NCBI RefSeq assembly: GCF_050320075.1
Contig: NZ_CP190018.1
Source: Escherichia coli
GTDB lineage: Bacteria > Pseudomonadota > Gammaproteobacteria > Enterobacterales > Enterobacteriaceae
Strand: one strand, 5' to 3'
Length of the DNA: 64,000 bases
Below the pieces are notes generated by a model. That model had not been told where the DNA came from and searched no databases. It saw only the letters and a program-made list of their open reading frames with translations. The position numbers and the translations under genes were made by a program. Below are positions 21,888 through 25,646 of this stretch, one piece after another (position 1 is the first letter of the stretch; the number at the start of each line of letters is the position of its first letter).

Positions 21888-22915
21888 TATGCAGCCTCCC
21901 GTTTTTTACCTGACGAAGCGGGTTTAACGGATGGCGGTGGCGTCATAAAGCGGGCATATTTTTGCCGCCGCAGATTACGTTCCAGCGCACAACGCAGGCG
22001 TCCATCAAACACCAGCACCGCCAGCAGCACGAGGCCCGCGATAAAATCGTTCCACCATGCCGGAATGCGCAACAGCACCAGTACACTATCGATCTGCGTC
22101 AGGAACCATGCGCCGAGTACCGCACCGATGATCGCGCCGGAACCGCCGAGCAAACTAATGCCGCCCAGCACGCAGGCTGCAATTGCTTTCATCTCCAGCC
22201 CGGTACCGGTCTGGTTGGGGATAAAACCAATCTGCGAAGCAAACACAATTCCCGCCAGTGCCGCCATGCAGCCGTTCAACGAAAATGCCACAATGCGAAT
22301 GGCTTCCGTACGAACGCCCAGTTGACGAGCGCCCTGTAAATTATCGCCCGTGACATAAAAACTGCGTCCAAACGCCGTCTTTGCCAGCAGCCAGGCCATA
22401 AATGCCACCAGAATTATCGTCAACCAACCAATCGCGGAAACGCCAAACAGCAGCGGGGCGGAGAGTTGTTTCAGTTCGGCGGGTAATCCCTCAATCCATT
22501 TACCGCCAGTCCACAGCAACATGATGCCTCTGTACAACCCTAACGTTCCAAGGGTGGCAACAATGGCAGGGATCTTTAGCCACGCGACCAGGACACCGTT
22601 GAAAAATCCCGCGAGCAAACCAAGCAGTAGAGTCGCGACACAAGCAACAGGTAGTGAATACCCCGCGTTCAGTAACATCCCCAACAGCACCGCGCACATT
22701 CCGGTAATCGAACCCACTGAAACATCAATATTGCGCGTAAGCATTACCAGCGTCGCGCCCATTGCCAGCAGGATCAGGATTTGCGCGCTGCTATAAACCA
22801 TGGTCAGCGTTTGCACACTTAAATACTGGCGGTCGAGAAAACCGGGTAATACAAACAGCAGCACCACCGCCAGCAGTGCTGTGATTTCACGGTTGTTCTG
22901 AATAAATTTCAGCAT
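21887..22915 (-). CDS. lsrC: AI-2 ABC transporter permease LsrC
   Basis: 342-aa ABC permease; stop overlaps the lsrD start. Confidence 0.86.
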
Positions 22916-24444
22916 GACGCCTCCTGACGCTGACTATCGCCGAAGGCAACGCGCATAATGGTCTCGACATTAATATCGCGTCCGGTCAGTGCAGAGTGGG
23001 CAATTTCGCCCTGATGCATCACATATACGCGATCTGCCATCAGTTCGATCTCTTCCAGATCAGAGGAGATAAGCAGCACTGCCACATTCTGTGCGGCGAT
23101 GCTGCGCAACAGCTGGTAGATATCATTACGGGCTGAGACATCCACGCCGCGCGTCGGCTCATCGACAATCAATACTTGCGGCGAGGCTTCCAGACATTTG
23201 GCAATCAGGATTTTTTGCTGGTTGCCGCCGGATAAGGTCCGCGCAGCTTGTTCCGGTTGGTTAAATTTAATATTCAGCGCCCGACGATAACGTTCCAGTG
23301 TGGCGCTATCTTTCGCGGTTTTCGCCCAGAATCCACGAAGGTTATGAGTAAGGGCGCAGACGTTCCAGGCCAGCGAAGCATCGAGATTCAGTCCGGATGA
23401 CTGGCGATCTTCCGGCAGATAAACCAGACCGCGCAGTAAACGTTCTCCAGTGGATAATTTATTGATCTCTTTACCATTCAGCATAATGCGTCCGCCACGC
23501 AAAGTACGCAGACCATAGAGCGTCTCGGCCAGTTCTGTGCGTCCGGCCCCCACCAGCCCAGCCAGACCCAGAATTTCTCCGGCATTAAGCGTCAGGCTGA
23601 CATTCATAAAACCTTCGCCGGTCAGGTTTTCCAGTGTCAGCACCGGCGTTCCGGCGGCATGTTGTGGGCGGTTGCCAGGTAACTCCAGCCATAATTTTTG
23701 GCTGGCAGAGAGCGATTTTTCCCGTAGCGCTGGCGTGATGGCCTGAATAATGTCGTCGGTAGACAGTTCGCTGGTTTTGCCGCTTAAGGCGATAGTTCCG
23801 TCGCGCATCACGCTAATCCGATCGGCAATCTGGCGAATTTCCGGCAGCTTATGCGAGATAAAAACAATACCCACGCCAGTAGCAAGCAGCTCTTGCAAGC
23901 GAGTAAACAAGCGTTCGGTTTCCGCAGGGGTAAGCGAGGCGGTAGGTTCATCGAGGATCAGAATCCGCGAGTCGCGCATCAGCCCGCGGAGGATTTCCAC
24001 CATTTGGCGATCGGCGACATCCAGCGATCCTGCCAGACTATGCAGATCAAACTGGCAGCCCAGCGCCGCCAGCAAGTTCTTCATTTTCTGCATGGAGAGC
24101 TGTTTTTTTGCCAGCCCAAACAGGATGTTTTCTTTTATCGACAGGCTTGGGAAAAGCAGCGGTTCCTGGGGAACGAGATAAATACCCAGCTGATGAGCAT
24201 GAACTGGCGTTAATCTGGCGTAGTTGTTGCCCCCAATCTCCAGCGTACCGCTATCAGCAGGGGTAATACCGGCAATAATCTTCATTAACGTCGATTTACC
24301 GGCACCATTGCCGCCGAGCAGGGCGTGGACCTCCCCCTGATGCAACGTAAAATCGATGCCTTTCAGGACATTGACCCCTGAATACTGTTTATAAACCGAG
24401 CGGGCGCAAAGTAGCGGTAACGCGCGGGTATCACTCGTTTGCAT
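22909..24444 (-). CDS. lsrA: AI-2 ABC transporter ATP-binding protein LsrA
   Basis: 511-aa protein with duplicated ABC ATPase domains (Walker [14 protein letters not shown] signature). Confidence 0.9.
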
Positions 24445-24475
24445 ATTTCCCCCGTTCAGTTTTGCAGGTGAGTTT

Positions 24476-24508
24476 TGAACAAATGTATTTCTGCTTTTAA
24501 TTTGTTCA
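24476..24508. promoter_or_regulatory. Palindrome TGAACAAAT-N15-ATTTGTTCA in lsrA-proximal promoter (candidate LsrR operator)
   Basis: Inverted repeat read directly; same TGAACA-N21-TGTTCA architecture recurs at 24644-24676. Confidence 0.5.
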
Positions 24509-24608
24509 TAACCTTAGGTGGACATTGCACATATTTCCGACGAATAGATCACAATTTATGCTATTTTGATTTTCACGGTTGCGTTTGTTCATACTCGTAG
24601 AGTCAAAC

Positions 24609-24624
24609 TGTGGTTGCCATCACA
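24609..24624. promoter_or_regulatory. Candidate cAMP-CRP site (TGTGG-N6-TCACA) in lsr intergenic region
   Basis: Near-consensus CRP half-sites separated by 6 bp; the lsr operon is known to be CRP-dependent. Confidence 0.45.
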
Positions 24625-24643
24625 GATATAAATGCGCAAGAAC

Positions 24644-24676
24644 TGAACAATTGCATTAAAGATTTAAATATGTTCA
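24644..24676. promoter_or_regulatory. Palindrome TGAACA-N21-TGTTCA in lsrR-proximal promoter (candidate LsrR operator)
   Basis: Inverted repeat read directly, 17 bp upstream of the lsrR start. Confidence 0.5.
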
Positions 24677-24692
24677 AAGTGAAGAATGAATT

Positions 24693-25646
24693 ATGACAAT
24701 CAACGATTCGGCAATTTCAGAACAGGGAATGTGTGAAGAAGAACAGGTCGCGCGGATCGCGTGGTTTTACTACCACGACGGGCTGACCCAGAGCGAGATC
24801 AGCGATCGTCTCGGGCTGACTCGCTTGAAAGTGTCGCGATTACTGGAAAAAGGGCATCAGTCCGGCATTATTCGCGTGCAGATTAATTCTCGCTTTGAAG
24901 GCTGTCTGGAACATGAAACACAATTACGTCGTCAGTTTTCGCTGCAACATGTCCGGGTGATCCCTGGGCTTGCGGATGCTGATGTCGGCGGGCGACTAGG
25001 GATAGGCGCGGCGCATATGTTGATGAGTTTACTTCAACCACAACAGATGCTGGCGATTGGTTTTGGCGAGGCAACCATGAATACGCTGCAACGCTTAAGT
25101 GGTTTTATTTCGTCGCAGCAAATTCGCCTGGTCACGCTCTCCGGTGGCGTCGGTTCTTATATGACGGGTATCGGGCAGCTTAATGCGGCGTGCAGTGTGA
25201 ATATTATTCCGGCTCCGCTGCGGGCATCCTCCGCTGACATTGCCCGTACGCTAAAAAATGAAAATTGCGTCAAAGATGTTCTGTTAGCCGCACAAGCTGC
25301 GGATGTGGCGATTGTCGGCATTGGGGCCGTGAGTCAACAAGACGACGCGACGATCATTCGCTCCGGCTATATCAGCCAGGGCGAACAGTTAATGATTGGT
25401 CGAAAAGGGGCTGTTGGCGACATTTTAGGCTACTTTTTTGATGCAAAAGGTGACGTTGTCACGGATATTAAAATACATAACGAACTGATTGGCTTACCTT
25501 TAAGCGCGCTGAAGACCATACCCGTCCGGGTTGGCGTGGCAGGGGGAGAAAATAAAGCCGAAGCCATTGCCGCTGCAATGAAAGGCGGTTATATCAACGC
25601 ACTGGTTACCGATCAGGACACAGCAGCGGCGATTTTACGTAATTAA
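24693..25646 (+). CDS. lsrR: Transcriptional repressor LsrR (SorC family)
   Basis: 317-aa protein with N-terminal HTH and SorC/DeoR-type sugar-phosphate-binding domain; divergent from lsrA. Confidence 0.9.

Follow-up and report, generated by a model that had tools for sequence, protein, structure and literature searches.

The 248-bp intergenic region between the divergent genes lsrA and lsrR of Escherichia coli very probably carries two LsrR operators, each lying on a CRP-dependent promoter, from which LsrR is released by phospho-AI-2. The region lies within a 64,000-nucleotide stretch of E. coli DNA, referred to here as the window, which was analyzed at its full length. A first-pass annotation, made from the sequence letters, had proposed LsrR operators on both sides of this region with a CRP site between them, and its interpretation is right in outline. 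It amounts to the correct recognition of a known control region and is not a discovery. A sharper definition of the operator, a homology with DeoR, and an ancestral layout of three units are modest refinements that we did not find in the accessible literature.

The genes flanking the region had been read as divergent lsrA and lsrR, and here NCBIfam equivalogs and RefSeq annotation agree. LsrA, LsrR and LsrK, as well as LsrC and LsrD, are full-length matches to NCBIfam equivalogs. The product of lsrA is the ATPase of the AI-2 ABC transporter, and lsrA is the opening gene of lsrACDBFG, with the genes for LsrC and LsrD downstream of it. Compared with the chains of PDB 4L5I and 4GO1, the encoded LsrR is changed at two positions. 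The region of the window matches E. coli chromosomes annotated lsrA/lsrR with 100% identity, the RefSeq annotation of these matching chromosomes gives lsrACDBFG-tam and lsrRK, and the lsr region was found in 4181 of 5426 complete genomes. The NCBIfam matches, the complete identity and the RefSeq annotation therefore establish that this is the well-studied E. coli lsr control region, whose biology is already known. The positions of all features are collected in Table 1.

Table 1. Genes, operator units, CRP sites, published boxes and candidate promoter elements in and around the lsrA/lsrR intergenic region (positions are those of the window).
Feature	Positions	Strand	Basis
lsrA, CDS	22909-24444	-	NCBIfam equivalog NF011967, 957 bits (cut-off 586); annotated lsrA in RefSeq E. 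coli
Key motifs of the published p-lsrA-box: AAAACTGAA (24463 down to 24455) and AAAACT (24476 down to 24471)	24455-24476	-	mapped from PMC8487509
O_A, probable lsrA-side LsrR operator unit, TGAACAAATGTATTTCTGCTTTTAATTTGTTCA	24476-24508	+	exact pattern match, conservation, PWM
Candidate lsrA -10 element, TAAGGT	24511-24516	-	fixed offset from O_A; CRPI at -41.5, start at about 24504
CRPI, weak putative CRP site, TGTGATCTATTCGTCG, 6/10 core matches	24538-24553	-	placement in PMC5137460; exact boundaries putative
O_M, decayed third operator unit, TGCTATTTTGATTTTCACGGTTGCGTTTGTTCA	24559-24591	+	positional homology; starts 83 bp after O_A
CRPII, TGTGGTTGCCATCACA, 9/10 core matches to TGTGA-N6-TCACA	24609-24624		direct reading, conservation
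Published p-lsrR-box, -237 to -197 from the lsrA ATG	24641-24681		coordinates in PMC5137460
O_R, probable lsrR-side LsrR operator unit, TGAACAATTGCATTAAAGATTTAAATATGTTCA	24644-24676	+	exact pattern match, within published box, conservation, PWM
Candidate lsrR -10 element, AACAAT	24646-24651	+	CRPII centre (24616.5) taken as class II (-41.5); positions -12 to -7
lsrR, CDS of SorC/DeoR-subfamily repressor	24693-25646	+	NCBIfam NF011947, 618 bits (cut-off 486)
lsrK, CDS of AI-2 kinase	25725-27317	+	NCBIfam NF008187, 1000 bits

The two units on which this interpretation depends, O_A beside lsrA and O_R beside lsrR, both read TGAACA-N21-TGTTCA, and direct reading of 24300-24850 confirmed the coordinates given to them. 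In O_A the arms occupy 24476-24481 (TGAACA) and 24503-24508 (TGTTCA); in O_R they occupy 24644-24649 and 24671-24676, and 21 bases separate the arms in each case. The exact pattern occurs twice in the 64-kb window, where none is expected, and never in 100 dinucleotide-preserving shuffles. When up to two mismatches were allowed, four matches were found against 3.2 expected in 64 kb, the two additional ones being unrelated and at chance level. A position weight matrix (PWM) trained exclusively on O_A and O_R sites from outside Escherichia gave 37.8 bits for O_R and 33.1 bits for O_A of E. coli, while the runner-up in the 64 kb reached 12.0. The two units start 168 bp apart, and a repeat finder aligned their 33-mers as direct repeats with 76% identity, a relationship on which the first-pass annotation did not remark.

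In order to follow these units across species, we collected 21 orthologous lsrA/lsrR-lsrK loci by scanning species-representative genomes, five further loci (Salmonella, Photorhabdus, Morganella, Enterobacter and Pantoea) by exact-protein look-up, and loci from Klebsiella, Sinorhizobium, Alloyangia and a Bacillus from a plasmid collection. O_A was present in all 16 Enterobacterales genera with zero or one arm mismatch, and O_R in 14 of the 16 with zero to two, both with a spacing of exactly N21. This exact spacing was seen in Escherichia, Citrobacter, Izhakiella, Serratia, Mangrovibacter, Buttiauxella, Edwardsiella, Salmonella, Photorhabdus, Morganella, Enterobacter, Pantoea and Klebsiella. 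The distance between the starts of O_A and O_R was 163-168 bp in the other genera. In a 10-taxon alignment, 23 of the 24 arm columns of the two units were invariant (12/12 in O_A and 11/12 in O_R) versus 69/224 of the remaining intergenic columns (Fisher p = 3e-10), while the spacers had 6/21 (O_A) and 10/21 (O_R) invariant columns. Further afield, the Bacillus lsr locus, whose LsrR is 39% identical, keeps GAACA-N21-TGTTC. The alphaproteobacterial lsr loci of Sinorhizobium meliloti and Alloyangia (LsrR 41-44% identical) contained no TGAACA-N(17-26)-TGTTCA at two or fewer mismatches; the TGAACA/TGTTCA motif is therefore not universal to LsrR.

Short inverted repeats are common in AT-rich intergenic DNA such as this, and several 6-nt repeats found in the region are probably of that kind; the two units might likewise be chance similarities devoid of function. 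Besides failing to arise even once in the shuffles, however, they have arms that are invariant across 16 genera while their spacers vary, and one of them coincides with a published footprint box. Judged by the conservation data, the chance reading is already refuted, and we assign it a negligible probability.

LsrR is reported to bind two intergenic "boxes," thereby repressing both the lsr operon and itself, that is, in both directions, and its binding to the promoter fragments as a whole is relieved by phospho-AI-2 (PMC5137460). We checked our mapping of these boxes against the sequence TAATGCA given for -214 to -208 in PMC5137460, which equals TGCATTA at 24652-24658 on the + strand. The p-lsrR-box encloses O_R with 3-5 bp to spare, and O_R holds both motifs reported to be required for binding, AACAAT (24646-24651) and AAGATTTAA (24659-24667). 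In the p-lsrA-box the motifs reported as crucial are AAAACT and AAAACTGAA (PMC8487509, citing mutational work in Xue 2009). These sit between O_A and the lsrA start codon, and they overlap O_A at base 24476 alone. Thus, of the two operators, for which the first-pass annotation had named LsrR footprints as the check, the one at the lsrR promoter falls within its published box, but the one at the lsrA promoter lies beside the published motifs and receives no confirmation from the accessible footprint information.

This discrepancy raises the alternative that the lsrA-side operator is the AT-rich p-lsrA-box itself, AAAACT-N7-AAAACTGAA at 24455-24476, and that 24476-24508 is something else, for example promoter elements. 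Both motifs are, after all, reported as LsrR-binding boxes of the lsrA promoter (PMC8487509), GTTCA at 24454-24458 resembles a half-site and is complementary to 24641-24648, and TGAACA resembles the -35 consensus TTGACA. Yet only 4 of the 15 motif columns are invariant among the 10 taxa, against all 12 arm positions of O_A at a fixed spacing. The motifs are absent altogether in Salmonella, Pantoea and Enterobacter, and the length of the stretch between them varies; the portion of 24455-24476 that is conserved consists of the TT adjoining TGAACA and of CGTTC by the lsrA ribosome-binding site. Moreover, replacing AAAACT would destroy the TTT of TTTGAACA, comprising the first base of TGAACA and the two T's preceding it, which belongs to the part corresponding to the TTGAACA contacted by DeoR. 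Since the replacement also hits the TGAACA arm, the published mutant results are compatible with O_A. A -35 element, for its part, leaves unexplained both the conservation of two arms with their N21 spacing and the match to the DeoR operator. We consider the p-lsrA-box alternative very unlikely and strongly favour O_A as the lsrA-side operator, a choice backed by conservation and not by the published motifs beside O_A. A full-text literature search for LsrR together with TGAACA gave no relevant paper, and searches for lsr start sites and box sequences added nothing. A point against our reading of the operators is that later LsrR footprints at other promoters, cysP and cysN among them, are reported with quite different AT-rich motifs.

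The arrangement of the twin sites had been described as symmetric, and this part of the first-pass annotation did not survive: the units share one polarity, they flank a third, and the region holds two CRP sites, not one. When the PWM was applied to O_A and O_R in reverse orientation, scores fell 13-17 bits below those in the forward orientation, and the pooled consensus of the units, TGAAcAA.TG..TTt.....t...a..TGTTCA, is asymmetric. By sequence, therefore, the units are polar, with palindromic ends, and form an array of direct repeats as opposed to mirror images. We also looked in each 33-mer for inner half-sites (GTTCA at positions 12-16 and TGAAC at 18-22). These were supported for the left half of O_R, with a mean of 3.8 of 5 matches; in O_A, in O_M and in every right half the same test gave no support. 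Full two-fold symmetry of the 33-mers was rejected on this ground, and the unit is described as polar as a consequence.

The third unit, O_M, announces itself in E. coli by an extra TGTTCA at 24586-24591, within TTTGTTCATA (24584-24593) and 83 bp from the matching end of O_A, which the first-pass annotation had not remarked on. This right arm is invariant, and the left arm has decayed. The PWM score of the E. coli O_M is -2.5 bits (rank 59 of 127,936), and because of this score we rejected it as a functional operator and regard it as a relic. Its positional homologue has a single mismatch in Salmonella, Serratia, Edwardsiella, Photorhabdus and Morganella, reading TGAATA...TGTTCA in Salmonella and Serratia. 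When copies with three or four mismatches are included, O_M was found in 11 of the 16 genera (one to four arm mismatches), starting 81-83 bp after O_A. In E. coli the step from O_A to O_M measures 83 bp and that from O_M to O_R 85 bp; in Salmonella both steps are 83 bp. We found no mention of O_M, or of the direct-repeat polarity, in the accessible literature.

These observations suggest a fuller reading, which we regard as a serious possibility that falls somewhat short of probable. The LsrR operator would be a polar 33-bp element, TGAACAAwTG..TT-N-TGTTCA, related to the operator of DeoR and 3 bp shorter, and the published AT-rich boxes would be only fragments or flanks of it. The ancestral Enterobacterales layout would have comprised three direct units about 83 bp (8 turns) apart with two CRP sites interleaved, the middle unit having been lost in E. 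coli. Such a three-unit layout, if true, would favour a phased, cooperative LsrR-DNA complex.

A related idea builds on our best explanation without displacing it. In this view the repeats would act jointly and not each at its own promoter: LsrR tetramers bound at O_A, O_R and, in the ancestral layout, O_M would all face the same side of the DNA and join into a loop or a higher-order complex, with the CRP sites enclosed in it and both promoters repressed cooperatively. The E. coli distances of 168 bp (O_A to O_R) and 83 bp (O_A to O_M) amount to approximately 16 and 8 helical turns. In addition, 12 of 14 mutants selected for stronger expression in the lsrA direction were changed in the p-lsrR-box, ∼170 bp away from O_A, and restoring the p-lsrR-box removed the gain (PMC5137460). 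However, a weakened divergent lsrR promoter would account for these mutants equally well, the altered bases lying around the start predicted for that promoter. The distance from O_A to O_R in Buttiauxella, 163 bp, is half a turn out of phase, O_M has decayed in Escherichia to the negative score given above, and we know of no protein interface between tetramers. We consider looping possible but doubtful.

The CRP site proposed between the repeats, TGTGG-N6-TCACA, is present as described, with TGTGG at 24609-24613, TCACA at 24620-24624 and six bases between. The order of elements in the literature is p-lsrR-box, CRPII, CRPI and p-lsrA-box (PMC5137460, Fig. 2), and the proposed site occupies the position implied there for CRPII. 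A CRP-like core by itself is not beyond chance: five sites with at most one mismatch were found where 1.8 were expected, and 3 of 100 shuffles reached five. The support for CRPII accordingly comes from its conservation. In the 10-taxon alignment 9 of its 10 half-site columns and none of its 6 spacer columns are invariant, and the distance from its centre to where O_R starts is 27.5 bp in 12 of 13 genera; in Pantoea it is 1 bp shorter, at 26.5 bp.

A second, weaker CRP site that the first-pass annotation did not mention, CRPI, serves the lsrA side. The CRPI box is described as "very close" to TGTGCAAT (PMC5137460), which is the reverse complement of 24524-24531, and CRPI is most likely TGTGATCTATTCGTCG, running from 24553 down to 24538 on the - strand. 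One half of this site, GATCAC/TCACA, is conserved, and in nine genera the end of O_A and the site centre are a constant 37.5 bp apart. Expression of lsr requires crp and is abolished when it is deleted, and CRP activates both lsrA and lsrR (bioRxiv 10.64898/2026.06.09.730415).

A scan of 24400-24740 for sigma-70 consensus sequences found no promoter, and the promoter positions therefore rest on CRP geometry and conservation. If each CRP site acts from -41.5, the lsrR start is predicted near 24658, ∼41.5 bp downstream of CRPII, with the -10 element inside O_R, and the lsrA start is predicted near 24504, ∼41.5 bp downstream of CRPI, with the -10 element abutting O_A. Assuming this distance yields the -10-like hexamers AACAAT and TAAGGT, which is consistent with the scheme but partly circular. 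The candidate lsrR -10 element is the same hexamer that is reported to be essential for LsrR binding. On the lsrA side, the block TAACCTTA at 24509-24516 is conserved, and the hexamer at a fixed offset beside O_A reads TAnnnT in 12 of 15 genera with varying inner bases (TAAGGT, TATGTT, TACGCT, TACCGT, TACCAT and TACATT). We infer from this combination of a conserved TAnnnT and variable inner bases the pattern expected of a -10 element. Relative to the predicted starts, O_R would extend from about -14 to +19 and O_A from about -4 to +29. Regarding the up-mutations in PMC5137460, we rejected an explanation through CytR in favour of the putative creation of a better -10 element.

In the mechanism that we propose, binding of LsrR at both promoter regions, its release by phospho-AI-2 and the dependence on CRP are taken from the literature (PMC5137460; bioRxiv 10.64898/2026.06.09.730415), and to these we add the features observed here, with their conservation and fixed geometry. 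The main recognition elements would be the outer ends, TGAACA and TGTTCA, of each 33-bp unit. By analogy with B. subtilis DeoR, each unit would bind one LsrR tetramer, a dimer of dimers, whose outer helix-turn-helix domains would recognize the conserved ends, leaving the weaker and asymmetric interior (consensus TGAAcAA.TG..TT ... TGTTCA) to the inner domains. Contact by four domains would call for inner half-sites, and it speaks against this scheme that these are weak in O_A and O_M. LsrR bound at O_A and O_R would block RNA polymerase at both promoters; phospho-AI-2, the product of LsrK, would release LsrR, and cAMP-CRP would be needed for any expression.

The lsr switch is a model for AI-2 uptake and signal quenching and is widely reused in synthetic biology. 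Its operators stand in the literature as loose AT-rich motifs, and katG, ahpCF, fim and cys are among the new LsrR targets now being nominated from them. With a polar TGAACA-N21-TGTTCA definition, direct targets of LsrR could be tested for far more specifically, and such a definition would also explain why promoter-engineering mutations cluster as they do.

The published E. coli lsr region is the same locus, and its LsrR boxes, CRP sites, two-way repression and activation by CRP are established; the published boxes are short AT-rich motifs, whereas the operators described here are TGAACA-N21-TGTTCA. The LsrR "boxes" of the intergenic region reportedly go back to Xue et al. 2009 (Cell Res 19:1258), and its CRP sites are said to have been described by Wang et al. 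2005 and by Xavier and Bassler 2005, according to the summary in PMC5137460.

A close relative of the lsr units is the operator of DeoR, a regulator of the same subfamily. In B. subtilis, the operator to which the DeoR tetramer binds is 39 bp long, ATTGAACAAAATTTCAATTACCAATTTACATATGTTCAA, and has the form TGAACA-N24-TGTTCA; its left palindrome is strong and its right half weak, and base-specific contacts to TTGAACA involve R34 and R39 (PMC11229326). A phmmer comparison of LsrR with DeoR (PDB 8R7Y) gave E = 4.5e-28, and R34 and R39 of DeoR (chain positions 39 and 44 in 8R7Y, owing to a 5-residue tag offset) align with R44 and R49 of LsrR within a common motif, R-x-x-V-S-R-L-L. One gap of 3 bp is enough to align the lsr units with the DeoR operator, and at the right end of the E. 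coli O_R 15 of 16 bases agree with it (ATTTAAATATGTTCAA versus ATTTACATATGTTCAA). Both systems have the outer elements TGAACA ... TGTTCA, a strong left half with a right half that retains only the outer element, a tetrameric protein, a divergent layout of regulator and operon, and a sugar-phosphate inducer. They differ in the spacer, 24 bp for DeoR and 21 bp for lsr, and in number, with one operator at -60 to -21 for DeoR against two or three units in the lsr region. The inner half-site of the DeoR operator is TTCAA, where most lsr units have A(A/T)TG(Y)(R)TT instead; the full TGAAC-N6-GTTCA, which matches the layout of the left DeoR half-operator, is kept only in the left half of O_R of Citrobacter, Izhakiella and Serratia. 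At the level of aligned sequence, then, the lsr units fit the structurally defined DNA recognition of the SorC/DeoR subfamily, and the analogy supports one LsrR tetramer per 33-bp unit with its outer domains on the conserved ends.

The lsr system also shares features with two others. CggR of Bacillus subtilis (SorC/CggR) is likewise a dimer-of-dimers tetramer released by a phosphorylated sugar, and its operator of ∼45 bp resembles the lsr units in having two half-operators of unequal strength. In contrast, its DNA-binding domain is a winged helix, its motif, CGGGAC ... TGTC, is unrelated to that of lsr, and its operator lies downstream of the start, at +32 to +77. A published list of incoherent type-1 loops of CRP includes the lsr genes (PMC6121374), and from geometry alone their promoters would be classed as class II CRP-dependent. 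They resemble the gal and mgl class II CRP promoters with a local repressor, which form incoherent feed-forward loops, in the placement of CRP ∼41.5 bp upstream of the predicted starts, in their poor -35 elements, and in a specific repressor that overlaps the core promoter. Unlike promoters of the gal and mgl type, however, the lsr region has two divergent promoters, each with its own CRP site.

Between the lsrA-side LsrR operator unit, O_A, and its lsrR-side counterpart, O_R, lies a third unit, O_M, of which the right arm is the sole surviving part in Escherichia. Homologues of O_M with at most one mismatch to TGAACA-N21-TGTTCA were found in Salmonella (locus L023), Serratia, Edwardsiella, Photorhabdus (L024) and Morganella (L025).

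Features of the lsrA/lsrR control region and its surroundings (window coordinates)
Feature	Position	Remark
O_M, third 33-bp unit	24559-24591	83 bp from O_A, 85 bp from O_R
O_M right arm	24586-24591	
TGTGCAAT	24524-24531	reverse complement of these positions
GTTCAGTT	24454-24461	adjoins lsrA ribosome-binding site
AACTGAAC	24641-24648	left edge of O_R
ORF after lsrK	27793-33261	1822 aa

Photorhabdus and Morganella possess both O_A and O_M. Upstream of lsrR at these two loci, O_R was not recognisable, and the usual position of the CRP-like site CRPII held no CRPII-like site. The absence of both elements suggests either a different wiring of lsrR autoregulation in these genera or errors in the annotation of the lsrR starts.

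Near the lsrA ribosome-binding site, the octamer GTTCAGTT is the perfect complement of AACTGAAC. CCGTTC is kept in 10 taxa and is missing from Salmonella, Pantoea and Enterobacter; the element could be a stray half-site, or merely a portion of the 5' leader.

Following lsrK, the window carries a long ORF. The annotation of its counterpart in the closest RefSeq genome describes a frameshifted protein bearing an extended signal peptide of the ESPR type (autotransporter-like), and a fragment of an ISNCY transposase comes next; the gene therefore appears intact in this strain.

Beyond Enterobacterales, the lsrA-lsrR intergenic region of the Firmicute Bacillus sp. N5-665 (L031 2308-2340; LsrR 39% identical) contains AGAACA-N21-TGTTCT. 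At the Sinorhizobium (L029) and Alloyangia (L032) loci, where LsrR is 41-44% identical, no TGAACA-N21-TGTTCA-type site was found, and TGTTCAT(A/T)TG elements are present.

Two published up-mutations, TGTGCAAT to TGTACAAT and TGTGCAAT to TGTGTAAT, were both proposed to remove a CytR site (PMC5137460). Both shift the hexamer TGCAAT toward TATAAT, yielding TACAAT and TGTAAT (each 5/6 matches). These mutations may simply build a stronger -10 element upstream of O_A, instead of acting through CytR-site loss.
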